From contig NZ_QLIR01000027.1 in NCBI RefSeq assembly GCF_003428155.1, positions 1-18,036 of the forward strand: a stretch of 18,036 nt of DNA. Direction: 5' to 3'. Within the stretch, counting starts at the first letter, position 1. Each line of letters begins with the position of its first letter. Positions 1,596-18,036 of this stretch are shown in pieces. The position numbers were made by a program, and so were the translations under genes. Below the pieces are notes generated by a model. That model had not been told where the DNA came from. It did not search any database and saw nothing but the letters and a program-made list of their open reading frames with translations. Origin of the DNA: Fastidiosibacter lacustris. Lineage in GTDB: Bacteria; Pseudomonadota; Gammaproteobacteria; Francisellales; Francisellaceae.

Positions 1596-2195
1596 ATGCA
1601 AATTAATGTTATCGTTATTGGGGATACTGGTGTTTGTCTTGAATGCTGTAAATTAATCTTTAAGTCACAAGCTTATAACCTTATTGCTGTTATCAGCGAT
1701 GATCAAGCTGTACTAAACTGGTGTTGTCAAAATAGAATCGAAACACTGACTTATCAAGCGTATCAAAATAGCCAATATCGAGATTATTTGTTATTCAGCA
1801 TTATCAATCAACGCATTATCCCTGCTCAAATAATCAAAAAACATCAGATAAGACTTGCAATTAACTACCATGATTCTCTATTACCTGCTTATGCAGGCAT
1901 CAACAGTACTACCTGGACCATCCTTAATAACGAGAAAAAACATGGGGTGACTTGGCACAAAATGATTGATGGGATTGATGAAGGGGATATTATTCAGCAG
2001 GCTTCAGTAGCGATTACGCCAAAGGACACTGCACATAGCCTTAACTTGAAATGCACAAAAAAAGCAATTGAATTATTTAAAGCTTTATTAACTAATTTAG
2101 AAAATAATACATTAAGCGTTCAATCTCAAGATCTAAGCAAGAAAAGTTATTATGGCTTAGATTATCTCCCACAAAACTATGGATTCATTAATGAT
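1596..2195 (+). other. Formyltransferase (F) domain of the NRPS-like protein
   Basis: Asn90/His92 in INYHDSLLP (His codon 1869-1871) and Asp in IDGIDEGD match the N-H-D catalytic arrangement of methionyl-tRNA formyltransferase-type domains. Confidence 0.75.
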
Positions 2196-5100: not shown

Positions 5101-6395
5101 ATCTGTTACACCAGTTACTGACTTTAACATCCTATCAAATTTACCTTTGTATTAGAGCTAAAGATGAAGTGCATGCAAGCGAACGTATGGCACATAAATA
5201 TCAATTTTATTTTGACGTGTCTCTGGAAGATCATTTTAGTGATCGTATTATTTACATTGCTTGTGATTTAGAAAAAGAGCAGATTGGATTAGCAGATAGT
5301 GAATATCATCAACTGATTAAAAATATAGATAGCATTATTCATTGTGCTGCTTTAGCAAAACACTACGGGATTGAACAGGTATTTTATAATGCTAATGTAC
5401 AAGCAACAATTCATTTGCTTGAACTTTGTCAACTGACCAACTTGAAAGATTTTCATTATATATCGACTTACTCTGTGATGACAGGGATTGTCAATGAGAA
5501 TGAAACTATTCTAACTGAGGATGATCAGTTAACGATTGATGGTGAATGGAACTCTCCATATACTAAAACTAAATACCTCGGTGAAATCAATGCAATTAAA
5601 TGGCGTGAAAAAGGCATTAACAGCAGTGTGTATCGTGTTGGGAACTTAGCCTTTATGCAGCACAATGGCAAGGTACAGGAAGATGTTAAAGATAATGCCT
5701 TTGCAACCTATATTGCTTTTATTCGTAAGTTAGGTTGTATTGCTGATAATATGAATGAAGTAGAGATTTCACCTGCTGACATGACAGCAAAAGCGATTGT
5801 TAAACTATTTGATAAACATCAGTTAAACAATCGGACACATCATGTATTTAATCCCCATAAAATCGATTTATCTAAAATGCTGAGTACGAAAAACCATACC
5901 ACCCAAGTGATAACTTTTGAATTGTTTATTGATAGGTTAATCAATTATTTACAATACAACGATGATTGTTCTTTAATTGGAAGGTTTTTATTACGCATGG
6001 GATGGCAAGCTGATACAAAAAAGAGTCATTTCAACATAAGTAGCGGTACCACTATTTTACAAAGCAAGACGGAATCGATGTTTAAAATGATGAATTTTGA
6101 ATGGCCTATGATTAATGACAAACAGTTAACAGCTTACGTTGATAGGTTAGCCAGTACTTTTGATGGGATTGTAGAAACACCTATAACTGCTCCTAAATAT
6201 TTCAGGCTAAAACAGTGGTGGATAAGGTTTGATAAGTTGACAAATAGCGCAAAAATAAAAATGATGAGGCTTTTCAAAGCACATAAAAAAGCCATTTCCA
6301 TTGTTGGTGCGTTATTGTTTATGGCGCCATTATTTTATGTCTTAGAACTTTTAGATATGATTACTATGCTGGAATTTTTGAATGCTCCTGTTTAA
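1596..6395 (+). CDS. Single-module NRPS-like enzyme: formyltransferase - relic condensation lobe - adenylation - thiolation - thioester reductase - C-terminal hydrophobic tail (1599 aa)
   Basis: N-terminal Fmt-like motifs are INYHDSLLPAYAG and IDGIDEGDII. A-domain core motifs are LTYAELNAKANQLARYL, LKSGAAYVPIDPSYP, YIIYTSGTTGMPKGV, FDASVWE, NSYGTTE, GELCISG, YKTGDLVRW, GRKDTQVKIRGFRIELGEIE and NGKV. The T motif is FFRLGGNSIKAIQL. R-domain motifs are LLTGVTGFLG and YTKTK (YxxxK). Confidence 0.9.
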   Translation: MQINVIVIGDTGVCLECCKLIFKSQAYNLIAVISDDQAVLNWCCQNRIETLTYQAYQNSQYRDYLLFSIINQRIIPAQIIKKHQIRLAINYHDSLLPAYAGINSTTWTILNNEKKHGVTWHKMIDGIDEGDIIQQASVAITPKDTAHSLNLKCTKKAIELFKALLTNLENNTLSVQSQDLSKKSYYGLDYLPQNYGFINDCTSLEDIHRYCRALYFGDDYPNQITSVKIQLENTVYLLDMPTFANIPHPLSDITGLYIVSGEKALHFPTIRNAYGIKINLNKIVSINELISHKIIVNDNDWNKLKAIKKNEKKQFNHALRLSEKANSIISKAITNDESAKFSYSIDVDELNTQEAISAISLVLLRLFQQDEFLIHFYSGDSRLNHLSHLIDSKCFIEFNQKQLELQLGDFANYIDENSNKKHLLTKDFYYRYHCINLLTDVGIYYNGSFTDSITPHRLNFILYDEKIEIISHDTDKLEINAIVSSLQVVISEYHYHLKQNTPLNDISLLSKEEYQKIIIDWNKTDKPYPKDKTIYQLFQEQVEKTPDHIAVVFAGQQLTYAELNAKANQLARYLRLLTDIQPDTLIALCLDKSLEIIIGVLGILKSGAAYVPIDPSYPDERIRYILDDTQVSLLLSQSHYVSRLKSISKANIISLDNYCYQGLPIDNLKPINTSNDLAYIIYTSGTTGMPKGVCIMHKSLCNMAFSQQENLNINESSRILQFASIGFDASVWEIFGALSFGSQLHVMQDKIKLHKDTLEKYIALNEIDIIASTPYNLVTMTPSNVKSLRCLISEGEACTTHILNKWGNILINSYGTTENTICMTLYSFKKGDLPNNIGKPLGNIKVYVTDPYANNMPIGIIGELCISGIILAQKYLNQPRITAEKFIANPFASEEDKQKGYDRLYKTGDLVRWLPDGNLEYIGRKDTQVKIRGFRIELGEIENAVTTIEGIDQAVVINRSVNDEQYLFAYYTAHHPITPELIVEQLANKLPHYMVPSAALQINEIPLTINGKVNIKVLPDIPFQSAQIYIEPRTEQERLVCQAFSTVLLIEKIGIDDDFFRLGGNSIKAIQLSMVLQSNLEIDVAEIFDLRTPRKLAYNKRITHDLLIAKLAQIKQYYTQHHNKPLNSAALLKKEQYLAEVAHMPIIHYTNKPIKTVLLTGVTGFLGCNLLHQLLTLTSYQIYLCIRAKDEVHASERMAHKYQFYFDVSLEDHFSDRIIYIACDLEKEQIGLADSEYHQLIKNIDSIIHCAALAKHYGIEQVFYNANVQATIHLLELCQLTNLKDFHYISTYSVMTGIVNENETILTEDDQLTIDGEWNSPYTKTKYLGEINAIKWREKGINSSVYRVGNLAFMQHNGKVQEDVKDNAFATYIAFIRKLGCIADNMNEVEISPADMTAKAIVKLFDKHQLNNRTHHVFNPHKIDLSKMLSTKNHTTQVITFELFIDRLINYLQYNDDCSLIGRFLLRMGWQADTKKSHFNISSGTTILQSKTESMFKMMNFEWPMINDKQLTAYVDRLASTFDGIVETPITAPKYFRLKQWWIRFDKLTNSAKIKMMRLFKAHKKAISIVGALLFMAPLFYVLELLDMITMLEFLNAPV
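2613..3186 (+). other. Possible relic C-terminal lobe of a condensation domain (no HHxxxDG seen)
   Basis: TQEAISAISLVLLRLFQQDEFLIHFYSGDSRLN resembles the post-C4 segment of C domains. LSKEEYQKIIIDWNKTDKPYPKDKTIYQLFQEQVEKTPDHIAVV is a typical C-to-A linker. No His-motif is visible upstream. Confidence 0.35.
3198..4655 (+). other. Adenylation (A) domain
   Basis: Motifs A1-A10 are listed under the CDS entry. Specificity-pocket residues read by hand alignment to GrsA-PheA are D728 A729 W732 A771 I792 E794 S813 I821 C822 K1012. Confidence 0.9.
4683..4910 (+). other. Thiolation / peptidyl carrier (T) domain
   Basis: LGGNS motif. The predicted phosphopantetheinyl Ser1066 codon is at 4791-4793. Confidence 0.85.
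5058..6171 (+). other. Terminal thioester reductase (R) domain, SDR fold
   Basis: Rossmann motif TGVTGFLG, IIHCAALA, and catalytic Y1322-x3-K1326 (YTKTK, Tyr codon 5559-5561). The position directly after the T domain is as in terminal NRPS/CAR reductases. Confidence 0.85.
6291..6356 (+). other. Predicted C-terminal transmembrane / tail-anchor helix of the NRPS-like protein
   Basis: AISIVGALLFMAPLFYVLELL is about 21 mostly hydrophobic residues, preceded by a basic stretch (KMMRLFKAHKK), 12 aa from the C terminus. Confidence 0.5.
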
Positions 6396-6423
6396 ACATT
6401 TAAATTAGAATTAAGGATTGGAG

Positions 6424-7647
6424 ATGCGCCTAACAAGCAAAAAAGATTTAACTTCATCGTTTGATGAATTTTCAGAAATTGTTCCTGGTGGTTTTTATTG
6501 GTTTGATTTAAATCATAAATTAATGGCAATAAATTCATTTGCTCTAAAAACTGGTAATGCAAAACTTAGCGATGTTATAGGTAAAACTCCGATAGAAATG
6601 CACCCAAAAGAAATGGCAGATGAAATCATCTCAAACCATAAGCAAGTAATTAAGACAGGCAAACAATTACACTGTCAAGAAAGAATACAGGATTTTAAAA
6701 CTGGAAACACTGTTTTTTTTGATGTTGTACTTTCACCATTATTCGATGAAAATAACGAAATATTTGGTGTTTGTGGTATTTCAACTGACATCACCGAACG
6801 CAAGCGCCTTGAAGAAGAAACCATCCGCCAGAAAAACCAACTTGAGAAAAAATTAGAATATCAAAAGAACTATCTTAAAGCTTATGGGTATGATTACGTG
6901 GACGCACTTAAAAAAATTTCTGATGCCCTTGAAAATATTGAAAAACGACTAATGAAGTTGGATATACCAACTGGGGTACGCAGTCAACTTAATGATGAGT
7001 TTTATACAATAAACGAAAGTTTGTCCGATATATATTCTCTGTATCAAAAAATCAACACATCAATATTAGATCAAGAACACAATAATGATGAAGTAGAAAA
7101 AAATGAGATGCCTCTTAACTTGGAAGATTTAGTTGAAACAGAAGTCAATTTAGCCAATTCATCTATTAGTGCTGAATTTGATCTGAATGTCTCCTTTGAA
7201 ATCGACGAAAAATCAAGACAAAAGCTTTATATCGATTATAAAAAAGTTCGTCACATTATCCGTACTTTATTTGCGAACTACACTAAAGCAATCAATAAGG
7301 AAGGTAGGAAAAAAGACATTCAGTTAACTATTACTGCTGAAGAGGGTATACGAGATAAATTGTATGTTACTTTTGAATTTGATGGCAATATGCCATTTCT
7401 AGAATTAGAAAATGATAATATCAGAGCAGAGCATCTTGTATATCAATCTCAAACCCATATTGCTAGCGATAAACATAACTTTGCTTATGATCTTTCCTTA
7501 GCGAAGTATTATGCTGACTTGCTCTGTGATGGTGAAGAATTGAATGATTCCTTATTTGAAGGTTCAAGGTTCTCATTCACTTTGCCATTTCGCAAAGCGA
7601 CTAACGATGGCAAAGAAAAAAAGTTTAAGCCAACGCTTGTGGAATGA
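6424..7647 (+). CDS. PAS-domain protein with degenerate HisKA/HATPase-like core (pseudo-histidine kinase)
   Basis: The PAS region ends in ISTDITERKRLEEE, followed by a coiled coil. At the H-box position it reads YLKAYGYDYVDALKKI, with no His. N-box-like FANYTKA and the tail GSRFSFTLPF are retained, but G1 (FEFDGNMPF) and G2 (YDLSLAKYY) are degenerate. I chose ATG 6424 over the tracked TTG 6418 because AAGGA at 6413-6417 lies 6 nt upstream of it. Confidence 0.7.
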   Translation: MRLTSKKDLTSSFDEFSEIVPGGFYWFDLNHKLMAINSFALKTGNAKLSDVIGKTPIEMHPKEMADEIISNHKQVIKTGKQLHCQERIQDFKTGNTVFFDVVLSPLFDENNEIFGVCGISTDITERKRLEEETIRQKNQLEKKLEYQKNYLKAYGYDYVDALKKISDALENIEKRLMKLDIPTGVRSQLNDEFYTINESLSDIYSLYQKINTSILDQEHNNDEVEKNEMPLNLEDLVETEVNLANSSISAEFDLNVSFEIDEKSRQKLYIDYKKVRHIIRTLFANYTKAINKEGRKKDIQLTITAEEGIRDKLYVTFEFDGNMPFLELENDNIRAEHLVYQSQTHIASDKHNFAYDLSLAKYYADLLCDGEELNDSLFEGSRFSFTLPFRKATNDGKEKKFKPTLVE

Positions 7648-7805
7648 TAGTTTGTTAAGTCTCCGTTTAGAGTATACCTTAACTTGATGTCAGGCAATAT
7701 CAATATACCTGTCAGATTTAAGTTGGTATTTATTTTAGTTGACAGTTTAAATGCAACCTCTTAGGCTCTAAACTGGCAATGTTTAACAAAAAATATATAA
7801 TTCAT

Positions 7806-7824
7806 CAGCGAAACTCAGTGAGTT
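7806..7824 (+). repeat. Copy A of an exact 19-bp direct repeat CAGCGAAACTCAGTGAGTT (contains palindrome AACTCA-G-TGAGTT)
   Basis: Read directly. It is identical to 9888-9906, and the flanks diverge immediately on both sides. Confidence 0.95.
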
Positions 7825-8074
7825 GAATTTTATGAGCAAATAATCAATTGCTATCAATTTGAGCCTAATAGAACTGTAAAAATATTCAAAACTGAGCTTG
7901 CTAATAGTGATTTAAACTGTTTATTTGTTTGTTTTTAGATCAGATATTTTGTACGGATGTGTAAAGTCATCCCAAACCATATGAGATGTTTAGCTGCTTA
8001 AAGATTAAATGATTTGTGGAGGAGAGTATTCATTTTGCCTTAAATGAAAGCACAGCATATGCTCCCAACTATCA

Positions 8075-8116
8075 ATTGACATCCTCCCCTCCCTAAAGGA
8101 AGGGGAGGATGTCAAT
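8075..8116. repeat. GC-rich perfect hairpin (16-bp stem ATTGACATCCTCCCCT / AGGGGAGGATGTCAAT, 10-nt loop)
   Basis: Read directly. It lies about 30 bp upstream of where the SHMT-like reading frame opens (8146). No U-tract follows on either strand. Confidence 0.9.
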
Positions 8117-8145
8117 AGGTCTCATTATCGGTCGTCAACTTGTAA

Positions 8146-8748
8146 ATCGGCGTTGATATTATTCATGGCAGTACTCATAAAACATTTCCAGGACATCAAA
8201 AGGCAATTATCGCCTTTCATTCTGATTTTCATCAAGATGATGAGGATAAAATTAGGCATAGCGTTTCGCCAGGATTGCAATCAAAATCAGGTACAGCGGA
8301 AATGATGGCATTAGCTTATGTCTTTTGTGAAATGAAAGTACATGCTGTGGCTTATGCTAAAAGTGTGTGTGAGCATGCACAAATTATGGCAAAACATTTG
8401 ATTGAACAGAGGGTTGATGTTTCAGGTCATCGATTTAACTATACCCAAACACATCAGGTACGGTTACCAATGAAATCAGAACGCTATACATGGGATGTCT
8501 TTGCTCAATTACATCAGGTAGGCATTCGTGTCTTACCAGCGTGGTTGCCTTTTGAAAGTAGCTGGGGCGTTCGATTGGGAACAAATGCACTGACAAGACG
8601 AGGATTTGTAGCAGAAGACTTTTTAACAACTGTTGATTGGATTACCTGCGTTATTAAAAATAAAACAAATATTAAAAACATAAGAAAGGAAGTGGATGCG
8701 CTTGCAAATAAGTATCCTCTGACACAATTGAAATATACGCTGATATAA
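8146..8748 (+). pseudogene. 5'-truncated serine hydroxymethyltransferase-like (fold-type I PLP) gene fragment
   Basis: The frame is open from 8146, upstream of the tracked TTG at 8275. GVDIIHGSTHKTFPG matches the SHMT PLP-lysine motif (THKT). SPGLQSKSGTAEMMALA and GVRLGTNALTRRGF match the FPGxQGGP and GIRIGTPAxTTRG regions. The roughly 200 N-terminal residues are absent. Confidence 0.6.
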
Positions 8749-8807
8749 CTATGTCGAAGTATCGAATAAGTTTTTTTAAACTGTTTTTACCATTAGGGTG
8801 ATAAGAG

Positions 8808-9850
8808 ATGCATAATATTCAATATGATTTATTTAGTGATACCAATGTGAATCCCTATTATGCTATGCGTCAGATGATGAGTCGAGCAAAAGTTGGTAAT
8901 GAGGCAGCAGGGGAAGATCCAACCGTGAATTTACTTTTGGCACGGGTTTGTGAGTTACTGGGAAAGCCGGCGGCCGTTTTTATGCCAACCGGAACTATGT
9001 GTAGTGGTGTTGCTTATCGGGCTCTCTGTCAACCTGGAGAGAGAATTATTATTGAAAAAACTGCGCATCCATTGAAAATATGGCATCGGGGATGATTGGT
9101 GGGCTAGTTGGTGCTCAGCCACAGATCATTGAAGGAGTACGGGGAATATTCAATGTTGATCAGTTAAAACAGGCTGTGGGTCTTAATAGCGGATATAATA
9201 TTGCTAAAGCAACGGTTGTTTCAATAGAGCAGACAACAAACCTTGGTGGTGGTGCCGTTTGGTCATTGGAAACTATTAATAACATCTGCGAATATACACA
9301 TCATCATGGGCTTAAAGTACATATGGATGGTTCAAGACTTTTAAATGCGTGTATAGCAACAGGCATTAAAGCCAGTAGCTACTGTGAACATGTTGATTCA
9401 GTATCGATTGATTTTGCTAAAGGTCTGGGTGCCCCGATGGGCTCGGTTCTTGCCGGAAGTCAAGCATTTATTGATAAAGCTTGGTTTTATAAATTCCAGC
9501 AAGGCGGTGTTATGCATCAGGCAGGATTTATGGCTGCTGCCTGTATCTATGCGCTTGATCATAATATTCAACGATTGAGTCAGGATCATGCCAATGCCAG
9601 TTATTTTGCAGAGCGCTTATCTCAGCATCATGACATAGAGGTTATGACTGTCGAAACCAACATTGTTATTTTCACCCTAAACAGGCGAGACTCTTTTGAT
9701 GCGTATCAACTGCATCAAATACTTCTGCAAAAAGGTATCAGACTTTTAGCCTTAAATGATCGACAATTAAGGGCAATTTTTCACATGGATATACAAACTA
9801 AAAGTATCGATAAAATTATTAAAATCATTATCGGAGTATTACCAACATAA
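8808..9850 (+). pseudogene. Low-specificity threonine aldolase-like (Beta_elim_lyase family) gene with one frameshift
   Basis: Two ORFs (8808-9095 and 9080-9850) together give a full-length aldolase: DLFSDTN, VGNEAAGEDPTVN, GKPAAVFMPTGTM, TAHPL | ASGMIGGL, and PLP-lysine SIDFAKGLGAP. The frame switches near 9072-9082 at an A4 tract. This could be a true mutation or a sequencing error. Confidence 0.75.
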
Positions 9851-9887
9851 TAGCCAGGTAAAGTATCTGTTTTAGCCCTTATGCAAC

Positions 9888-9906
9888 CAGCGAAACTCAG
9901 TGAGTT
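9888..9906 (+). repeat. Copy B of the exact 19-bp direct repeat CAGCGAAACTCAGTGAGTT
   Basis: Identical to 7806-7824. It lies at or inside the proposed left end of the IS6-family element. Confidence 0.95.
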
Positions 9907-9952
9907 ATTAGTCATAGTATTAATAACACTTATCTTATTGGGTCAAATTTCT

Positions 9953-10662
9953 ATGGACTTAAGCACTAAACCGAAACGCCATCGTTATCCTATCGAAATC
10001 ATTAACTCGGGAGTATGGTCATATCATCGATTCAATGACAGCTATCGCGATGTTGCAGAAAGACTAGCATTTAGAGGAATTCAAGTTAGTCATGAAACGA
10101 TTAGAAAGTGGTGCAATAAATTCTCAAACACTTTTAGTGATTTTATTAAAAAACAGCAACGTGAACCAACAGATAAATGGCATCTAGATGAGATGAACAT
10201 TACAGTAAATGGTGAGTATTTTATTCTCCGGCATGCAGTTGATTCCGAAGGATTGGAGTTGAATATCTTTGTACAAAAGCGTCGTAATAAAAAAGCAGCT
10301 ATTCGTTTTTTAAGAGGTTTACTTGGAAATTATCCTGACCCGAGAGTTTTGATTTCAGATAAGCTATCAAGTTATACTAGACCAGTTAATAATATGATAG
10401 CAAATACTGAGCACAGATCACACAATGACTTAAATAATCGCGTTGAAAATGCTCATCAAAACCGACGTGAAGAAAGGAGAACTCTCTGGTAAAGTTTAAA
10501 TCCCCTAGAGGTGTTCAGCAAACTGTTAATCTCATGGGCAAAGTGCGTAATATTTTTGCCATTCCAGTTGGTAGATATAAGAATTCCGCTAAAGAGCAAC
10601 GTTATCAATTTAAGTTGGCAAAAAAGATGTGAAATCTAGCAGCACAAAATATTTGCGCCTAA
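9953..10662 (+). pseudogene. IS6-family DDE transposase, frameshifted with an in-frame stop
   Basis: MDLSTKPKRHRYPIEIINSGVWSYHRFNDSYRDVAERLAFRGIQVSHETIRKWCNKF, DKWHLDEM and NNRVENAHQ are typical of IS6/IS240. The frame breaks near 10465-10485, and the C-terminal VKFKSPRGVQQ... continues in another frame to TGA 10630 (probably an ex-TGG) and then to TAA 10660-10662. The tracked start at 9881 is probably read-through from the IS end. Confidence 0.75.
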
Positions 10663-10816
10663 AATTTATAATTCTGATCATGATACATCATGCAAAAGTT
10701 AAGTTGATGGTGCGTTTTTAGTTACGATTAATTACAAAATGTATCAATAGTAGTAATTGCCTTACACCCACATGTAGAGTTAATATCAAGCCGGTTTAAC
10801 AAAACAGGAGTAACTA

Positions 10817-11119
10817 ATGAAAAATTTAGCTAATAAGTTTGTCCTATTAACAATGTTTCTTGGAGTGTGTTCGGTTTATGCCTATTCGCATAAAGATGTT
10901 AAATTAGTGAATATCACTGACAGTATTATGGCAAAAGAATCGGTGTATAGAAAGATTAAGGATAATAATATACAGTTAACCAAAATATCAGATTTGTATA
11001 ATCAGGCGGTTCAAAAACTTTATGAGGAAAATGTTAGTACAACATATGTTGCGTCTGATGGAATCGTGCTTTATTTAAACAAAGATTTAGTTATAACAAG
11101 TTTAATACTTGATTATTAA
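10817..11119 (+). CDS. Hypothetical small secreted protein (100 aa)
   Basis: AGGAG lies 6 nt upstream of the ATG. The N-terminal signal-peptide-like segment is MKNLANKFVLLTMFLGVCSVYA. No family was recognised. Confidence 0.5.
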   Translation: MKNLANKFVLLTMFLGVCSVYAYSHKDVKLVNITDSIMAKESVYRKIKDNNIQLTKISDLYNQAVQKLYEENVSTTYVASDGIVLYLNKDLVITSLILDY

Positions 11120-11143
11120 TTTACAGGAAGGCAATGGTTAATT

Positions 11144-11362
11144 ATGAAAAATATTTGTAGATCATTTATCTTATTTAATTTTGTATTATTTTCAATAGGA
11201 TTAGCTGCTGAAGATGTTAAAATTCAAGAAAAGAAGTCTTTACATTTTTGCACAACTGATTTGGAATTATCAAAAAATGATGGAAGGAATCCTTCTAATC
11301 TAGCAGATGATAACTTTAAAGTTCTTGCTTTAAACGATAAATGTAGCGGCTCGCTTTCATAA
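11144..11362 (+). CDS. Hypothetical small secreted protein (72 aa), 3' end possibly remodelled by the transposon insertion
   Basis: Signal-peptide-like MKNICRSFILFNFVLFSIGLAA. The last codons (CSGSLS-stop, 11341-11362) lie in a visibly GC-richer stretch that leads into the transposon end repeats. Confidence 0.4.
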   Translation: MKNICRSFILFNFVLFSIGLAAEDVKIQEKKSLHFCTTDLELSKNDGRNPSNLADDNFKVLALNDKCSGSLS

Positions 11363-11366
11363 TCAC

Positions 11367-11495
11367 CCCGACCCGCTTTTATCGCTCAAAGTGGGACCAC
11401 ATTAATTGACTCTATAAATATTTTCTGACCCACATTAAATGACTTTATAAATTTCTCGACCCACATTATTTGCATCTGGGACCACATTAAATGAT
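11367..11495 (+). repeat. Transposon terminal array: four direct copies (plus one degenerate) of a 19-bp motif with core GACCCACATTAAATGA, putative transposase-binding sites
   Basis: R1 11392-11410 TGGGACCACATTAATTGAC. R2 11426-11443 TGACCCACATTAAATGAC. R3 11457-11474 CGACCCACATTATTTGCA. R4 11477-11495 TGGGACCACATTAAATGAT. Degenerate R0 is at 11367-11385. All copies share one orientation, have irregular 20-34 bp spacing, and lie directly upstream of the resolvase/transposase operon. Confidence 0.8.
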
Positions 11496-11519
11496 TTTAT
11501 CCAGTGCGCTTAAAGTGTC

Positions 11520-11539
11520 AGAAAAACCCTCGTTTTTCT
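11520..11539. promoter_or_regulatory. Palindrome AGAAAAAC-CCTC-GTTTTTCT between transposon end and resolvase gene, candidate res subsite
   Basis: Read directly (8-bp arms, 4-bp spacer). Its location between the end repeats and the resolvase start is where a res site or resolvase promoter would be expected. No functional evidence. Confidence 0.25.
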
Positions 11540-11652
11540 TGTAATTGCATATCCCCACAATATTTTATTGTTCACCAATAAGATTACCCGTTGAGAAAAT
11601 CAAAGCAAAGTGATATAGTTTTTGCAGTGTTTTATTGTGAGTTTGTCTTATC

Positions 11653-12279
11653 ATGTTAGTTGGTTATATTCGTGTTTCTAAATCAGATGGTAGTCAGGTC
11701 TTAGATTTACAGAAAGACGCCCTATACAAAGCTGGTGTGGAAGTGGACTACATGTATGAAGATCTTGCCTCTGGGCGCAAAGATGATCGCCCAGGCTTAA
11801 TCGCTTGTTTAAAAGCTTTACAGCCAGGCAACACACTTGTCGTTTGGAAGCTTGATAGACTTGGTCGCGACATGAAACACTTAATAAGTGTAATTGATGA
11901 TTTAAATCATAAGAAAATTGGGTTTAAAGTGCTAGCAGGTGCTGGTGCTGAAATTGATACGACAACGGCAAATGGACGTCTAGTATTTGGCATTTTTGCA
12001 GCCTTAGCAGAATTTGAACGTGAACTAATCAGAGAGAGAACTCAAGCAGGACTGGCTGCTGCAAGAGCCCGAGGTAGAAAAGGCGGGCGTCCTCGTAAGA
12101 TGGATATTCAAACTTTAAAAATGGCAATGTCCGCTATGTCTGATCGAAACTCAATTGCACATGAAATTGCCAAACGCCTAGGAATTACAACTACAACACT
12201 TTACGCCTATGTTAATGGTGATGGAACACCTAAAGAACTGGGTAGTAAATTGCTGAATAAAGTAGACTCTAATGGCTAA
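11653..12279 (+). CDS. Serine recombinase (resolvase/invertase family)
   Basis: N-terminal catalytic motif MLVGYIRVSKSDGSQ (Ser9), DRLGRD, and GRLVFGIFAALAEFERELIRERT. The C-terminal HTH is IAKRLGITTTTLYAYV. The stop overlaps the next ATG (12272). Confidence 0.9.
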   Translation: MLVGYIRVSKSDGSQVLDLQKDALYKAGVEVDYMYEDLASGRKDDRPGLIACLKALQPGNTLVVWKLDRLGRDMKHLISVIDDLNHKKIGFKVLAGAGAEIDTTTANGRLVFGIFAALAEFERELIRERTQAGLAAARARGRKGGRPRKMDIQTLKMAMSAMSDRNSIAHEIAKRLGITTTTLYAYVNGDGTPKELGSKLLNKVDSNG

Positions 12280-13903
12280 ATCACTTCCCACTGAGCAATT
12301 AATCATCTTGCATAATAAAATGTCTATGTACGCAGCAAGAGATCCAAAAAGAAAGCAGTTGGTATGTGATTTTGCTAATAGCTTTGGGGTGTCTGAAAGC
12401 ACTGTTCGACGTCAATTGCGTGAACATATTCATTTTTCAAAGGTTTCTCGACTAGATAAAAACACACCAAGAGTTATTTCTAAGTCAGACATGTTGCTTT
12501 ATTGCAGAGTTATTGCTGCTTTAAAGCTTCGCACATCAAACAAGAAAAATAAACATTTATCAACTCAGCAGTGCATCAAGATTCTTGAAAATTATGGTGT
12601 TGAAACAGCTGAAGGATTCGTAATATCATCAAAAGGACTTTTAAAGAAAACAACCATAAATAGATATTTGAAAAACTGGGGGTATGATCCAACTTCTATG
12701 AAAGTTGAACCAGCAGTGGTTAGGTTTGAAGCCGAAAATAGTAATGACTGTTGGCAATTTGATTTTACGCCTTCAGACTTAAAGAAAATTTCTGCTAATA
12801 GCTCTAAAAAGCTATTCATTGCTAATGTTACTGATGATAAAAGTGGTATGTTGTATTATGAGTACGTTGAATCAGACGGTGAAGACGTGCTTACCGCATT
12901 GAAATTTTTATTTAATGCAATGTCTGCAAAGAAAATAGAAGGTATGCCATTTCAAGGGATCCCCAAAATGATCTATACGGATAATGGTGCTTTTGCAAAA
13001 AGCGCATTGTTTAAACGTGTTCTAGATGCCTTGGGAATTCAACTAAAGAAACACTTACCAAAAAATAAGGATGGGCGACGAACAACTGCCCGAGCAAAAG
13101 GAAAGGTTGAAAGGACAAATCGCACGATAAAAGAATCCTTTGAGCCTTTATTCCATTTACATCAACCAGAAAGCCTTGAGCAAGCCAATTTATGGGCGAC
13201 GAATTATTTGCGTCAATATAATCAGTCATCACATCGATCTGAGGATTGTAGCCGAATAAAAGCATGGTCAAAATTTTTACCCGCTGAAGGTTATAGAGAA
13301 ATGTGCTCTTGGGAAAAGTTTTGTCAAATTGTGCGCGATCCTGAATTAAGACGAGTTGCTTCAGATGGTTGCGTTAGTGTTAATGGTGTCAAATACCAAT
13401 TATCAACTGAGATGGCTGGATTAGAAGTAACTTTGCTACATGGCATGTTTGACAATGAGCTTCATGTTGAGTTTAACAGTGAAACACATGGACCTTTTTA
13501 CCCATTTTCCGGTCCAATTCCCTTACATACCTATAGGTCACCTCCTAAGAGCAAAAGAGAAAAGACAGCAGATGAAATAGCTAGCTTAGCTGAAACGCTT
13601 TCTGTACCAATATCTGTTATGTCTAACAGTAAAGATGATAGCATCCTCAAAAGCCTAGAAGCTTCACATGTTACTGATTGCCAAATTACATCAATACCAT
13701 TTAGAGAAGATAAGAAAACAACTTTTCAAAACAGATTAGAGGCAAAAAAAGCAATTGCTAAATATTTGAATAGACCATTGGCAGAATTAAGAGATGAGCA
13801 ATTAGATCATATTAATATGTTAGTTCAGGAGTCTCTAAATAAAGAGTTTTTACTCTCGAAAGTAAAGCAATATTTTTCTTTGTCAATTGCACAGCTTGAA
13901 TGA
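12272..13903 (+). CDS. Mu/TniA/TnsB-type DDE transposase (rve integrase core, 543 aa)
   Basis: DDE triad candidates are D164 (CWQFDFTP, codon 12761-12763), D237 (MIYTDNGAFAKS, 12980-12982) and E280 (KGKVERTNRTIKE, 13109-13111). There is an N-terminal HTH-like region and a Mu-transposase-like C-terminal beta region (VSVNGVKYQL). Confidence 0.85.
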   Translation: MAKSLPTEQLIILHNKMSMYAARDPKRKQLVCDFANSFGVSESTVRRQLREHIHFSKVSRLDKNTPRVISKSDMLLYCRVIAALKLRTSNKKNKHLSTQQCIKILENYGVETAEGFVISSKGLLKKTTINRYLKNWGYDPTSMKVEPAVVRFEAENSNDCWQFDFTPSDLKKISANSSKKLFIANVTDDKSGMLYYEYVESDGEDVLTALKFLFNAMSAKKIEGMPFQGIPKMIYTDNGAFAKSALFKRVLDALGIQLKKHLPKNKDGRRTTARAKGKVERTNRTIKESFEPLFHLHQPESLEQANLWATNYLRQYNQSSHRSEDCSRIKAWSKFLPAEGYREMCSWEKFCQIVRDPELRRVASDGCVSVNGVKYQLSTEMAGLEVTLLHGMFDNELHVEFNSETHGPFYPFSGPIPLHTYRSPPKSKREKTADEIASLAETLSVPISVMSNSKDDSILKSLEASHVTDCQITSIPFREDKKTTFQNRLEAKKAIAKYLNRPLAELRDEQLDHINMLVQESLNKEFLLSKVKQYFSLSIAQLE

Positions 13904-13920
13904 TATATAAGGAGATTGAA

Positions 13921-14895
13921 ATGTATATTGAAGCAAATGAATTTTATGGGTTTGTTAAATTCTTTAATGATGCTGGTTACTATGAAACGCAAGCCCATAA
14001 AAGGATTTATAATGATATCACCGCACATATTCAATCTGGTGGGATATATGCATTAACTGGTTCAGTTGGCGCAGGTAAAACAAAGTTACTTAATAAAATC
14101 CAAAGCGATTTAGATAGTAAAAAACAAATTATCGTATCAAGATCTTTGACGACAGAAAAAAAATCTTTAACCATAAAAACACTGCTTGTGGCACTCTTTT
14201 ATGACCTCCTCAAAGGAGAAAAGGTTATCAAAATACCATCGGTTAGTGAAAAACGCGAGCGTGAGTTGATTGACCTTATAAAAAAGCACAACAAACCTGT
14301 CGCCTTATTGATTGACGAAGCTCATGATATACATGGTTTAACCTTACTTGGTCTTAAAAGACTTGTTGAAACAACCGCCTCACAAGGTTACAGACTGTCT
14401 ATTATTATGGCAGGTCATCCGAAGCTTGGTAACGCACTTTCAACAGCAGCGATGGAGGAAATAGGTGCGCGAACCAAAATATTTAACATTGATGATGCTA
14501 TTGGCGATAAAGAAAAATATATTATCTGGCTACTTAAAGAGTGCTTAGATCCGAAGAAAAAATACCAAGAAATTATTTCTCCAGAAGCTATTCAGAAGCT
14601 TGCAAGCTCATTACAAACACCTCTGCAAATTCAACATTATCTTACTCAGGCAATACAGTCGGGGCATCAATTAGGTGAAAAAATAATTACCCCAGAGTTG
14701 ATTGAACAAACATTAAGTTTCGATCTAAATTCATTAGAAGCTCAACTTGCACGAAAGGGTTATCAACTAAAAGATACCTGTGAGATGCTAAATGCAACAG
14801 CTAAGGAAGTGCAAGATTACTTACAGGGTAAGTCTAACTCCCCACGGAAAAATGAGTTTATCCAGAAATTGCGCAGTATTGGAATTTCAATATAG
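13921..14895 (+). CDS. TniB/ExeA-like AAA+ ATPase (transposition accessory protein)
   Basis: Walker A is LTGSVGAGKTKLL and Walker B is ALLIDEAHD. I chose ATG 13921 because AAGGAG (13909-13914) lies 6 nt upstream. The tracked alternative ATG 13900 overlaps the transposase stop. Confidence 0.8.
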   Translation: MYIEANEFYGFVKFFNDAGYYETQAHKRIYNDITAHIQSGGIYALTGSVGAGKTKLLNKIQSDLDSKKQIIVSRSLTTEKKSLTIKTLLVALFYDLLKGEKVIKIPSVSEKRERELIDLIKKHNKPVALLIDEAHDIHGLTLLGLKRLVETTASQGYRLSIIMAGHPKLGNALSTAAMEEIGARTKIFNIDDAIGDKEKYIIWLLKECLDPKKKYQEIISPEAIQKLASSLQTPLQIQHYLTQAIQSGHQLGEKIITPELIEQTLSFDLNSLEAQLARKGYQLKDTCEMLNATAKEVQDYLQGKSNSPRKNEFIQKLRSIGISI

Positions 14896-14904
14896 GTCAT
14901 TGAT

Positions 14905-15975
14905 ATGAACACTCTTACTACTCAAGAATTACCGGAATACACCACATTCCTCAAACAAGCAACAACTGAGATACATAAGTCATATATACGGACAGTGAGA
15001 TCAGTGAATAAAGAAGTAACTTCCCTTTATTGGTGGCTAGGCGAGCACATTGTTCAATATCAAGATCAATACGGGTGGGGCAAGTCGGTTGTTGAACGTC
15101 TATCCAAAGACTTGAAACAGAAATTTCCAAGCGCAAAATTTGGTTTTTCACCGCAAAACTTATGGTATATGAGGCAATTTTATCTTGAATATAACGGCAA
15201 ACCAGAACTCCAACAGCTTGTTGGAGAAATTCCATGGGGGCAAAATTTGCTCATCATGAGCAAGGTAAAAGAGGATAACAAAAAGCTGTATTATCTTCAG
15301 TCAACTAAAGATTTTGCTTGGACGCGTGATACACTACGTGACCAAATAAACTCAAATGCATATGAGCGGCATTACTTGGCAACTAAACATCATAATTTTG
15401 ACAGTACGCTCCCAAAGATGCTTGCAGAGCAGGCAGATCAATCTATGAAAGACGTTTACATGTTTGACATGTTGGGCATTGCTGAACCAGTTATTGAAAC
15501 TGAAATTGAGCGCCGTATGGTTGAAAAAATTAAAGATGTAATCATGGAATTAGGCTATGGGTTTAGCTTTATTGGCAATCAATATCGTATTGTAACGCCT
15601 GATTCAGAATATTTTATTGATCTATTGTTTTACCACAGAAAACTACAGGCCTTAGTAGCTTTGGAGCTAAAAAGGACTCGCTTTAAACCAGAGCATGCAG
15701 GCAAAATGAATTTTTACTTAAACCTTTTGGATGAGTTCGTTAAAGAGCCTAATGAAAATCCATCTATCGGCATTATTTTATGTGGCGAACACAGTAAATT
15801 TGACGTTGAATATGCTTTAAGAGGGATCGATAAACCGGTTGGTGTTGCAGGGTATCAGTTGACCCGTGATATACCTGAAAAACTAAGGGATGCTTTGCCT
15901 GATGCGACTCAATTAGAAGAAAAAATTCAGTTTGAGCTTGGTTTGAATCAAGATAAATCAGATGATAAACAATAA
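14905..15975 (+). CDS. DUF1016/YhcG-family protein with C-terminal PD-(D/E)xK nuclease motif
   Basis: The N-terminal region (VNKEVTSLYWWLGEHIV, SPQNLWYMRQFYLEY, IPWGQNLLIM) is typical of YhcG. The nuclease motif is intact: FIDLLFYHRKLQALVALELKRT (D ... E-x-K, about 15611-15675). Only 9 bp separate it from the ATPase stop. Confidence 0.8.
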   Translation: MNTLTTQELPEYTTFLKQATTEIHKSYIRTVRSVNKEVTSLYWWLGEHIVQYQDQYGWGKSVVERLSKDLKQKFPSAKFGFSPQNLWYMRQFYLEYNGKPELQQLVGEIPWGQNLLIMSKVKEDNKKLYYLQSTKDFAWTRDTLRDQINSNAYERHYLATKHHNFDSTLPKMLAEQADQSMKDVYMFDMLGIAEPVIETEIERRMVEKIKDVIMELGYGFSFIGNQYRIVTPDSEYFIDLLFYHRKLQALVALELKRTRFKPEHAGKMNFYLNLLDEFVKEPNENPSIGIILCGEHSKFDVEYALRGIDKPVGVAGYQLTRDIPEKLRDALPDATQLEEKIQFELGLNQDKSDDKQ

Positions 15976-16673
15976 AGTAAAGAGAACGCTTCCCGCTTCT
16001 ATCCTACGCCCATTTAAAGCGGACTGGGAAAAGACCAATTTATGCATAAATTTGGATAGTACGCGCACAAATGAATTGCTTCAATCAGTTTTGCCCAAAG
16101 ATCAACTTAAATCATATCATATCATATTATCCAAGGAGGCTGCGCTAATCTTAACCTCAAGTTGAAGTTAAATGATGAACGTATGAAACTTTTGCGTATT
16201 TATATTCGTGATCATCAAGCATCTTATCGAGAACATGCGATTGCCCAGCTAATACATAAAACCATTCCAGTTCCAATCATAGAAACAATTGGGACTAGCA
16301 AAGGACTAAAGTTTGCTTTATGCGAGTTTATGTCAGCTATAACCCTACGTGAACTATTACTCAGCAATCAAATATGATCTTGAAGCCATTATGTATCAGG
16401 TTGGTAAAGCACTTACAAACATTCAAAAAATCACCTTTCAAGTTTCAGGATTCTTTGATCAACAGCTTAAGATAATTGCATCTACTGCTGATAATGAATG
16501 TATCAAACTTGCCAGACGAGCATTAGAACACAAAACAGCAAAAATAGTGCTTTCTGAAGAGCTTATTTCAAGAATTACTCAATTGCTTTACAAGTACGAT
16601 AATTTAATCCAAAAAATCAATGGCGTGCAATTGGTGCACGGTGATTTTGGACCGGAAAATATTTTGGTAAATA

Positions 16674-17684
16674 ACGTGAGTTCGATATAAAAGATTGAAA
16701 TTTATTCATAAAAGAGATTCTAATCGGGTTGCTTGAGATCGCCTTAAATGCTATATCTAAAGCCCCAAAACACAAACAACCCTAATGGCTATGCTAGAGA
16801 CTATTTTTTGTTTTGTCGATGATTTTTGTGAAGAGTTTATCCCTGTATGGCAACAGCATTTGATTGAACATGCTCAGAAAAAACGAGAAAGACAAGGTAT
16901 GATGGCGTGGAGCGAGGTTATGACTATCATGATACTATTCCACCAGAGTCATTATCGTAATTTGAAGCACTTTTATTTGGATTATGTATGCACCCATATG
17001 AAAGATGCTTTCCCACGCACAGTAAGTTACAACCGCTTTGTTGAGTTACAAAAATCGGTATTGGTACCACTATGTTTTATGCTTCACCTGCTTAAGGGAG
17101 ATAAAACGGGAATTTATTTTATTGACTCGACACCCATCAAAGTTAGCCATATTAAGCGTGAGAAGCAACACAAAGTTTTTGATGGATTGGCTAAGAAATC
17201 AAAGTCTACAACAGGTTGGTTTTTTGGATTTAAGTTGCATCTAATTGTTAACGATAAAGGGGAAATCATAGCTTTTAAAGTGACTGCAGCGACAATAGAT
17301 GACCGTGTACCTGTTGAGGATTTAACCCGTGGGCTTATTGGCAAATTGGTTGGTGATAAATGGTATATCAAAAAGGCATTGTCGGAGCTCTTATTTGAAC
17401 GGGGGTTGCAACTGATTACACGAGTTAAAAAGAAAATGAAAAGTGGATTGGTTTCATTGATAGATAAAGCACTTTTAAGAAAACGCGCAATTATTGAGTC
17501 AGTGAATGATCAGCTTAAGAATATCAGTCAAATTGAGCACACAAGACATCGTTCGATTTGGAATTTCATGACAAATTTGCTGTGTGGTTTAGTTGCATAC
17601 TATTTTCAACCAAAAAAGCCAAGTTTACGTACTAAGCAGAACCGTGAGTTGATGGCATTGTGATCAATTATATCGAACTCACGT
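16674..17684 (+). mobile_element. IS982-family insertion sequence (1011 bp) with 16-17 bp terminal inverted repeats and a 6-bp target-site duplication
   Basis: The left IR ACGTGAGTTCGATATA (16674-16689) is the exact reverse complement of the right IR TATATCGAACTCACGT (17669-17684). TAAATA is duplicated at 16668-16673 and 17685-17690. Removing the IS plus one TSD copy restores the APH frame (ENILVNKVSNQW). Confidence 0.85.
16785..17663 (+). CDS. IS982-family DDE transposase (292 aa, apparently intact)
   Basis: LETIFCFVDDFCEEF at the N terminus, IDSTPIKV, GFKLHLIVNDKGEI, LVGDKWYI and ESVNDQLKNISQIEHTRHRS are characteristic of IS982-group transposases. Confidence 0.9.
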   Translation: MAMLETIFCFVDDFCEEFIPVWQQHLIEHAQKKRERQGMMAWSEVMTIMILFHQSHYRNLKHFYLDYVCTHMKDAFPRTVSYNRFVELQKSVLVPLCFMLHLLKGDKTGIYFIDSTPIKVSHIKREKQHKVFDGLAKKSKSTTGWFFGFKLHLIVNDKGEIIAFKVTAATIDDRVPVEDLTRGLIGKLVGDKWYIKKALSELLFERGLQLITRVKKKMKSGLVSLIDKALLRKRAIIESVNDQLKNISQIEHTRHRSIWNFMTNLLCGLVAYYFQPKKPSLRTKQNRELMAL

Positions 17685-17915
17685 TAAATAAGGTGAGTAA
17701 TCAATGGAAAGTTAGCGCAATACTGGATTGGGAGTTTGCATTTTCAGGTTCAATGTTATGGGATGTTGCAAACATGCTGCGCTATGCACATCAAGTACCA
17801 GCTAATTTTGAAAAAGCTTTCATCTCAGGGCTGGTACAGTCAGGTATTACATTACCTAAAGTATATAAGTTTAGACTTGACCTGACAGTTGCCTATTTTT
17901 CAAACGTGGTTTTTG

Positions 17916-18036
17916 TCAGATATGGTTGAGCAATTCAACCTTCTCTTGCCAGTGCGTTTTCCCATCAGTAAAAGTTGCTATTGGTGTTCTGCCACAACAC
18001 ATTTTGCCTTGATGAGTCCTTTGATGATTATACTGA
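17916..18036 (-). CDS. 3'-terminal 39 codons of an rve-type (IS481/IS3-like) transposase, partial at window edge
   Basis: My own minus-strand translation, not in the ORF track: QYNHQRTHQGKMCCGRTPIATFTDGKTHWQEKVELLNHI-stop (stop = 17916-17918). YNxxRxHQG...G.TP is the conserved C-terminal signature of integrase-core transposases. It overlaps the aberrant 3' tail of the APH pseudogene. Confidence 0.5.
   Translation of the reverse strand, partial: QYNHQRTHQGKMCCGRTPIATFTDGKTHWQEKVELLNHI

Follow-up and report, generated by a model that had tools for sequence, protein, structure and literature searches.

Only a few base pairs downstream of a transposition module in an 18,036-nucleotide stretch of DNA from Fastidiosibacter lacustris (contig NZ_QLIR01000027.1 of assembly GCF_003428155.1; the whole stretch is called the window below) begins a gene for a YhcG/DUF1016 nuclease of the PD-(D/E)xK type, which raises the question of whether this nuclease belongs to the transposon or only travels with it. 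The first-pass annotation had set two readings side by side, namely that yhcG is simply the first cargo gene, or that it is a functional accessory of the element. Comparison with related loci indicates that YhcG is very probably an integral, co-inherited gene of the window's transposon lineage, whereas its role there can be named with less confidence. The question reaches beyond this locus: the YhcG/DUF1016 family, which is highly conserved and very large (its thousands of homologs include a y-gene of E. coli K-12), has no known function and had shown no conserved partner in a neighborhood analysis of 2005 (PMC1189080). The module consists of the following features.

11342-11535, + strand: left inverted repeat (IR-L), placed by homology to the 192-bp inverted repeats of the complete Legionella drancourtii element L011; the inner limit is approximate
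11536-11652, + strand: region 5' of the resolvase gene, presumed to contain the res site and the operon promoter
11653-12279, + strand: serine resolvase, 208 amino acids (Pfam Resolvase, 7.8e-43)
12272-13903, + strand: DDE transposase TnpA, 543 amino acids, of the retroviral-integrase (rve) superfamily (Pfam rve, 1e-06, below the gathering score)
13900-14895, + strand: AAA+ transposition ATPase TnpB, 331 amino acids, AAA_22 or ExeA-like (Pfam AAA_22, 2.5e-12)
14905-15975, + strand: YhcG/DUF1016 PD-(D/E)xK nuclease, 356 amino acids (Pfam DUF1016_N, 1.2e-41; YhcG_C, 2.6e-59)

The open reading frames (ORFs) of the window bear out the gene order and junctions of the first-pass annotation, with an overlap of 8 bp between the resolvase gene and tnpA, an overlap of 4 bp between tnpA and tnpB, and a gap of 9 bp between tnpB and yhcG. 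The best sigma-70-like promoter match lies 5' of the resolvase gene (11591-11619; 10 of 12 positions plus TG), and a scan from the resolvase upstream region to the end of yhcG revealed no terminator-like site at the gene junctions.

Homologous transposase-ATPase pairs were collected, as the first-pass annotation had proposed as a check, and those with yhcG have it in one constant place within the element ends. In tblastn searches with the four proteins of the window, yhcG was found directly 3' of tnpB in at least 24 distinct loci (designated by L numbers), many of them short metagenomic contigs. They comprise a Legionellales group (L008, L009, L011, L012, L014-L017 and L043), the TnpA proteins of which are 60-70% identical to that of the window, further genome loci from Endobugula (L020), Cellvibrio (L021), Cocleimonas (L022), Syntrophobacteraceae (L024) and Cysteiniphilum (L065), the metagenome loci L097-L102, L107, L110 and L119, and likewise L177/L178. 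In 19 loci, the distance from the tnpB stop to the yhcG start ranges from -1 to 19 bp. Wherever a locus continues beyond yhcG, the repeats and the terminus of the right end lie there, and in L008, L011, L012, L014, L015/16, L017, L020, L021, L022, L024, L065, L099-L101 and L119 the right inverted repeat (IR-R) follows yhcG immediately. No relative has an element end between tnpB and yhcG or another gene in the yhcG slot, both of which had been named beforehand as observations that would speak against an accessory.

Complete four-gene elements measure 4.8-5.0 kb. The element of L. drancourtii LLAP12 (L011) has 5,004 bp and a target duplication, CGTAGA, that can be read directly, that of Syntrophobacteraceae (L024) has 4,853 bp and the duplication AATAGG, the Cysteiniphilum element (L065) is complete with the duplication CCTAGC, and the contigs L008 and L020 are exactly one element in length. 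In many elements yhcG is the only gene besides the transposition genes. Where extra cargo is present it is variable and always lies outside the four-gene block: L177, among the long contigs the nearest relative (70% identity in TnpA, 80% in YhcG), carries radical-SAM, aspartyl-protease-like and hydrolase genes between yhcG and IR-R, whereas two unrelated genes for proteins resembling outer membrane proteins (L015/L016) or HTH-2TM and thioesterase genes (L021) are located between IR-L and the resolvase gene. The yhcG gene itself is intact in nearly all transposon copies, the exceptions being L097, with one nonsense codon, and L023, in which a remnant (3645-3936) with codons 1-45 joined to codons 302-354 lies between tnpB and an intact IR-R. 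The two pieces are 71% and 83% identical to L024, and the remnant is direct evidence that yhcG was lost by internal deletion.

In the window, yhcG has the same position and strand as in the relatives; its location inside IR-R was read in the relatives, since the 18-kb contig contains no IR-R. Thus, "first cargo gene" is not the best description of yhcG, because its position is fixed in at least 24 loci, IR-R lies 3' of it and other cargo is found elsewhere. The alternative term, functional accessory, is apt in that YhcG is a conserved and co-inherited part of the module, whereas the TnsA-like or TniQ-like roles suggested with it find no support.

The evolution of the four genes points in the same direction. 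Pairwise distances of TnpA and YhcG are correlated with r=0.96 across 17 elements, a value reached by none of 5000 permutations in a Mantel test, and the correlation also holds within subsets (r=0.97 in the Legionellales group, r=0.98 in a second group plus L065). YhcG has evolved at about 0.69 times the rate of TnpA. Within close pairs, the four genes of the block resemble one another in synonymous divergence (dS), and the ratio of nonsynonymous to synonymous divergence (dN/dS) of yhcG is 0.03-0.08, as low as or below that of tnpA, the values for the resolvase gene being 0.03-0.06. A neighbor-joining tree built from 97 YhcG sequences assigns every transposon-linked protein to one of two groups, the Legionellales group, which includes the window (bootstrap 1.0), and the second group with Cellvibrio, Endobugula, Cocleimonas and Syntrophobacteraceae (bootstrap 0.985). 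In the TnpA tree, the second group encloses a Methylococcales clade without YhcG (bootstrap 0.9), and L023 is joined to the YhcG-bearing L024 (bootstrap 1.0); therefore, losses of yhcG do occur.

A serine resolvase is present in every YhcG-bearing element, one type in the Legionellales group and L065, another, with at most about 30% identity to the window type, in the second group. The L065 resolvase (856-1458) is 73% identical to that of the window, whereas the TnpA proteins are 47% identical; thus, the resolvase is far more conserved across lineages, which suggests that the resolvase/res module has been exchanged between elements.

The left end of the element could be placed by comparison with complete relatives. 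The terminus, TGTAGCGGCTCGC..., begins at 11342, that is, 25 bp upstream of position 11367, at which the first-pass annotation had begun the module. The end repeats noted there are four direct copies of about GACCCACATTAA at 11392-11500, subterminal in IR-L, and are presumed to be transposase-binding sites; an inverted copy is not present in the window. The sequence GATAAA (11336-11341) precedes the terminus and would be one copy of the target duplication. Searches of the window with the repeat motif (at most 2 mismatches) and with the 21-nt terminus (at most 3 mismatches) did not reveal a right end, and the element is open-ended, because the window contains no inverted end copy and the contig stops at 18036. 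Three other public contigs with an identical transposase, 5-6.5 kb in length, end before any right end, and a megablast search of the PLSDB plasmids with the module gave no match. An ORF of 72 amino acids (11144-11362, + strand) enters IR-L, and its stop codon TAA (11360-11362) is supplied by the end of the transposon; a small gene of the host was probably shortened or changed by the insertion.

In summary of its architecture, the window contains the left end and the core of a transposon that has a Tn552-like layout and no TniQ. The window resolvase is 43% identical to BinL of Tn552 and 82-89% identical to its Legionellales relatives. TnpA matches the PHROG transposase family phrog_310 (2e-39), and TnpB, the gene of which is always the 3' neighbor of tnpA in the relatives, matches the PHROG "DNA transposition protein" phrog_296 (9.7e-15); despite these matches, the Pfam Mu-transposase C-terminal domain was not found in the window transposase. 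Calling the ATPase TniB-like, as had been done, describes a resemblance of class, since Pfam TniB (PF05621) is not among the 13 Pfam families that match the protein at E<=0.01, of which AAA_22 is the best. A family profile of TnpA recovered only weak retroviral-integrase cores from the PDB (E>0.1), and searches of the PDB sequences with TnpA, TnpB and YhcG as single sequences and with TnpA and YhcG family profiles gave nothing useful. The statement that no TniQ is encoded in the window was borne out: among the 19 larger ORFs scanned, none has a Pfam match to TniQ/TnsD or to TnsA.

It should be noted, however, that the absence of TniQ is the norm of the family and not peculiar to this copy, because three-gene relatives with paired ends also have no TniQ. 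The family is widespread, unnamed, and consists of resolvase-transposase-ATPase elements with a Tn552-like layout. A protein search yielded 1541 TnpA homologs at E<=1e-30 among 8000 candidates scored, tblastn against plasmids gave 927 records, and a scan of the genome collection gave at least 80 loci; in about 40 of the genome and plasmid loci, both ends could be paired by an inverted-repeat search. The hosts include Legionellales, Rickettsiales, cyanobacteria, Pseudomonas, Methylococcales and Enterobacterales. A typical element has 3.5-4.1 kb, mostly about 3.8 kb, contains only the resolvase gene, tnpA and tnpB, and is bounded by inverted repeats of about 170 bp, which are often 92-100% identical and have the termini TGTA(G/A)CG...CG(C/T)TACA. 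At least ten relatives have 6-bp target duplications, typically with a central TA (for example L004 GATAAT, L005 ACTAAG, L074 GCTATT). In the relatives without YhcG, IR-R lies directly 3' of tnpB, and TniQ is absent from about 40 such complete elements, those of about 3.8 kb having room for just the three genes.

The only labels that the members carry in databases are "IS481 family transposase" and "AAA/ExeA family". The transposase has matches in about 390 plasmid records from Salmonella; in the one examined, pSTUK-100 of Salmonella Typhimurium (NC_016864.1; L180 2939-6105), a three-gene member with a 43% identical TnpA lies beside spvR and a carbonic anhydrase gene, and its products are called no more than a recombinase, an "IS481 family transposase" and an "ExeA family protein". 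A member without YhcG on plasmid pPMA4326B of P. syringae (L007 5130-11680; 6.5 kb) carries the gene of the type III effector HopW between tnpB and IR-R.

What, then, could YhcG contribute? The window protein matches DUF1016_N (PF17761) and YhcG_C (PF06250) with 142.5 and 200 bits, compared with cut-offs of about 33. The nuclease motif, which had been described as intact, corresponds to the E...D...ExK catalytic motif of the family (PMC1189080), and its residues E215, D239, E254 and K256 are invariant in 22 of 22 transposon-linked homologs. A comparison of transposon-linked with non-linked YhcG proteins for group-specific residues revealed just one marginal position, so that, as judged from the sequences, transposon-borne YhcG does not appear to be specialized relative to stand-alone YhcG. 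The AlphaFold2 model is of moderate quality (pLDDT 70), with a good N-terminal domain and values of 60-79 in the nuclease domain; Foldseek matched it to MGME1, NucS/EndoMS and Cas4, but these matches are weak (the best has E 4e-3) and reflect the fold in general, without pointing to a particular function. No TnsA is among the 50 best Foldseek matches, and the Pfam TnsA domains are not matched by YhcG. An earlier profile analysis had placed the YhcG nuclease domain near the archaeal Holliday-junction resolvases and YraN (PMC1189080). The window protein also matches, over its full length, the PADLOC candidate phage-defense gene PDC-S02 (E 1.4e-128).

Genes of the YhcG family are common on many kinds of mobile elements and in defense islands, and the commonest neighbors of non-linked yhcG genes are type I restriction-modification subunits and tyrosine integrases. 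Stand-alone genes 77-80% identical to that of the window exist, for example in chromosomes (L090/91). They are surrounded by no remnants of tnpB or IR-R, and the homology ends at the coding sequence, so that an origin as decayed transposons finds no support. In L092-L095 (for example L092 7001-9215), which encode a YhcG 78% identical to that of the window and have no transposase nearby, the yhcG stop codon overlaps the start of a tyrosine integrase gene (Arm-DNA-binding and Phage_integrase domains), a second tight pairing of YhcG with a recombinase.

The reading preferred here, for which confidence and doubt are about evenly balanced, is that YhcG has an autonomous role that benefits the element or its host and is not part of the transposition reaction. 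TnpA and TnpB would perform transposition by a replicative route, and the resolvase would resolve the cointegrates. YhcG would be an accessory that is not required for the transposition chemistry and substitutes neither for TniQ nor for TnsA; as an autonomous DNA nuclease it would share the activity of the YhcG proteins that stand alone in islands bounded by integrases and in loci for type I restriction-modification. Being co-expressed from the transposon operon, it would raise the persistence of the element or the host, the likely means being the cleavage of foreign or competing DNA, that is, defense or conflict between mobile elements. Autonomy is favored by the sister elements without YhcG, which are complete and have target duplications, and by the deletion derivative L023, which keeps both inverted repeats. 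It is likewise favored by the invariant catalytic residues and the absence of residues peculiar to transposon-linked YhcG, by the close stand-alone genes, which have just the coding sequence in common with transposon copies, by the restriction-modification and integrase genes beside non-linked yhcG, and by the match to PDC-S02.

Nevertheless, several points weigh against this reading. Passengers of small transposons usually turn over; a slot that stayed fixed while TnpA fell to 47% identity, in a family in which passengers are otherwise very rare, would rather be expected of a gene of direct use to the element. The rate at which YhcG evolves is lower than that of TnpA, unlike that of many defense genes engaged in an arms race. 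One PDC-S02 representative conferred no protection on E. coli B against T4, T5 and T7 (10.1101/2024.09.26.614923), and no experiment shows an activity of any YhcG protein. The union of the two transposon-linked YhcG groups has a bootstrap of 0.02, and a single origin is thus unsupported; because of this, one and two acquisitions of yhcG are both possible, and two acquisitions at the same site would argue for a functional coupling to the module. In addition, the trees are neighbor-joining trees built on tblastn-derived translations, and the right end of the window's own element was not seen.

A participation of YhcG in the transposition reaction itself survives best among the alternatives, although it is rather doubtful. 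YhcG would then be a structure-specific nuclease that acts on the strand-transfer (Shapiro) intermediate by cutting its 5' donor strands or flaps, a functional analog of TnsA of Tn7 or of the cryptic nuclease of MuA, and would bias transposition toward simple insertions or rescue stalled intermediates, with the resolvase as a back-up. Such a role would agree with the fixed place of yhcG as last gene of the transposase operon, within -1 to 19 bp of tnpB, with its co-divergence with TnpA, with a purifying selection no different in strength from that on tnpA and tnpB, with the otherwise passenger-free family and possibly two independent acquisitions at one site, with the recurrence of YhcG beside other recombinases (the tyrosine integrases, including the overlap in L092-L095), with the negative outcome of the sole phage-defense test of PDC-S02, and with the resemblance of the nuclease domain to NucS/EndoMS and its proximity to Holliday-junction resolvases and YraN, nucleases of branched DNA (PMC1189080).

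The traces left by transposition, however, speak for a replicative route also in YhcG-bearing elements. In one metagenome-assembled genome (CAWASG010000001.1), two YhcG-bearing copies of 6,904 bp (L015 and L016; about 1682363-1689266 and 1700187-1707090, each 6928-13831 in its locus) are 100% identical, lie inverted 10.9 kb apart and have the reciprocal 6-bp flanks GATACT/CATAAC. This pattern fits an intramolecular replicative inversion, although two insertions followed by homologous recombination would look alike. Moreover, the resolvase is kept and strongly constrained in every YhcG-bearing element, the sister elements without YhcG and L023 have intact ends, transposon-borne YhcG has neither lineage-specific residues nor extra domains, TnsA was found neither in the top 50 structural matches nor in Pfam, and the gene order is unlike that of Tn7. 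A TnsA-like switch to cut-and-paste transposition, as suggested in the first-pass annotation, is thus disfavored by the constrained resolvase, the L015/L016 pattern and structural matches that lead to NucS, MGME1 and Cas4 and not to TnsA. The broader version, in which YhcG was recruited independently of TnsA to act on strand-transfer intermediates or donor flanks and alters the outcome or efficiency of transposition, is unlikely as well. The L015 element has a further peculiarity: its inverted-repeat match (6928-7192 versus 13567-13831) extends over 266 nt and reaches into the last approximately 110 bp of yhcG; the 3' end of yhcG is therefore repeated, in inverted orientation, at the left end, which suggests that the left end of this lineage has been rebuilt from a right end.

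That YhcG is an incidental first passenger of this copy, without a lasting link to the element, is very improbable. It is true that YhcG-family genes are common on mobile elements and in defense islands, that most family members have no yhcG, and that close stand-alone copies exist. However, the same gene occurs in the same position and orientation in at least 24 loci with TnpA identities of 47-100%, in hosts that span Legionellales, Cellvibrionales, Thiotrichales and Desulfobacterota. Many of these elements carry yhcG and nothing else, distances of the two proteins are correlated with r=0.96, and true cargo varies and decays, as in the window (see below), whereas yhcG stays intact. This reading is largely refuted, and was rejected because the position is conserved and YhcG co-diverges with TnpA.

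Hardly credible, finally, is the idea that YhcG is a target selector that replaces TniQ/TnsD or TnsE, recognizes a DNA sequence or structure and recruits the ATPase, which the missing TniQ, the adjacency of yhcG to the ATPase gene and the large helical N-terminal domain, modeled with high confidence, could suggest, and which was rejected because the whole family, including about 40 complete relatives without YhcG, has no TniQ and these relatives still insert with 6-bp duplications, the duplications with YhcG (CGTAGA, AATAGG, CCTAGC) and without it (GATAAT, ACTAAG, GCTATT) are alike in their central TA, neither a flanking gene nor an attachment site was seen to be shared by the elements, and the catalytic residues, needless for a pure selector, are strictly kept.

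Two further features lie at the 3' side of yhcG.

15962-17929, + strand: pseudogene of an APH-family phosphotransferase, variable cargo or downstream DNA (Pfam APH matches on fragments of 113 and 89 amino acids)
16672-17686, + strand: insertion sequence of the IS982 family with 24-bp inverted repeats and a transposase of 292 amino acids at 16785-17663 (Pfam DDE_Tnp_1_3; NCBIfam transpos_IS982, 9e-74)

The start of the APH-like pseudogene overlaps the yhcG stop codon. Its frameshifted pieces lie at 15962-16165, 16162-16377 and 16349-16690, and it resumes at about 17687-17929 beyond the IS982 element, which interrupts it and does not belong to the YhcG transposon. The first two pieces are a single ORF of 136 amino acids in the near-identical contigs L001 and L003. 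The gene is missing in the relatives, in which yhcG is followed by IR-R or other cargo. Upstream of the transposon, an IS6-family transposase gene (9881-10492, + strand; NCBIfam 1.7e-44) lies about 850 bp from the left end, in a region pieced together from mobile elements. Two overlapping ORFs, 8808-9095 and 9080-9850 (+ strand), are the parts of a broken beta-eliminating-lyase (threonine-aldolase-like) gene, and a C-terminal fragment resembling serine hydroxymethyltransferase is located at 8275-8748 (+ strand); the lyase gene and the fragment (8275-9850) are probably pseudogenes. Further upstream, a protein of 1599 amino acids resembling nonribosomal peptide synthetases is encoded at 1596-6395 (+ strand), with formyltransferase, AMP-binding, PP-binding and terminal NAD-binding reductase domains, followed 3' by a gene for a PAS-domain protein (6418-7647).

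Full-text literature searches retrieved no paper that links DUF1016/YhcG to a transposition module and none that describes this arrangement. The minimal transposons with yhcG as the only extra gene are thus the first conserved genetic context for an orphan family. They also offer a small experimental system of 5 kb in cultured strains (Legionella drancourtii LLAP12, Cysteiniphilum litorale DSM 101832), in which it can be asked whether an extra PD-(D/E)xK nuclease alters replicative transposition, or whether small transposons stably domesticate a defense-type nuclease. If YhcG were a transposition accessory, it would be a convergent second solution to the problem solved by TnsA; this would be the first biochemical role for a protein that has been an orphan for 20 years, and stand-alone members beside integrases or in islands might serve other mobile elements. 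In addition, the analysis documents a widespread, unnamed family without TniQ that includes copies beside spvR on Salmonella virulence plasmids.

Among known systems, Tn552, the beta-lactamase transposon of S. aureus, is closest in layout. Its genes for the resolvase, the DDE transposase and the ATPase are contiguous and in the same order, and the row ends at one inverted repeat (in pMW2, binL 7773-7180, p480 fragments, p271 5772-4957), and neither Tn552 nor the window module has TniQ or TnsA. The target duplication of Tn552 is 6-7 bp, and 6 bp were measured in the window's relatives. The ends of Tn552 carry repeated subterminal sites (PMC8649781), like the four repeats in IR-L. However, the window TnpA is only 27% identical to the catalytic core of p480 (E 2e-8), TnpB has no significant BLASTP match to p271 (E 0.1), and Tn552 carries bla cargo and no nuclease gene, YhcG being a constant fourth gene only in the lineage described here. 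On the basis of these comparisons, the window family appears to be separate from the Tn552 family in the narrow sense, with which it shares the layout.

Tn5053/Tn402 (tniA, tniB, tniQ, tniR) likewise combine a DDE transposase, an AAA+ ATPase and a serine resolvase with multi-repeat ends, and their replicative transposition with cointegrate resolution would also apply to the window element. In contrast to them, the window and its 3.8-kb relatives have no TniQ, the ATPase has no Pfam TniB match, the target duplication in the relatives has 6 instead of 5 bp, and the resolvase gene is the first and not the last. Tn7-like elements also encode a PD-(D/E)xK nuclease together with a DDE transposase and an AAA+ regulator, and their ends, too, are arrays of transposase-binding repeats. 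However, YhcG, with a helical N-terminal domain and a C-terminal nuclease, has the opposite domain order to TnsA, tnsA precedes tnsB whereas yhcG follows the ATPase gene, and the elements described here have kept a resolvase, have no target selector and include sisters in which yhcG is dispensable.

Precedents for a stable non-transposase gene that resides in a transposition module and aids persistence without catalyzing transposition are the toxin-antitoxin genes embedded in that of Tn3-family transposons and the accessory nuclease TnpB of IS200/IS605 elements. They involve other proteins and other transposase families, and neither an antitoxin nor a guide RNA is evident here. The closest comparison for the protein itself is with stand-alone YhcG (E. 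coli YhcG; PDC-S02), which has the same two domains and E...D...ExK motif, is 46-80% identical to the window protein and is found in type I restriction-modification loci, beside tyrosine integrases or alone in chromosomes. Only one part of the YhcG family tree has been joined to a transposition operon.

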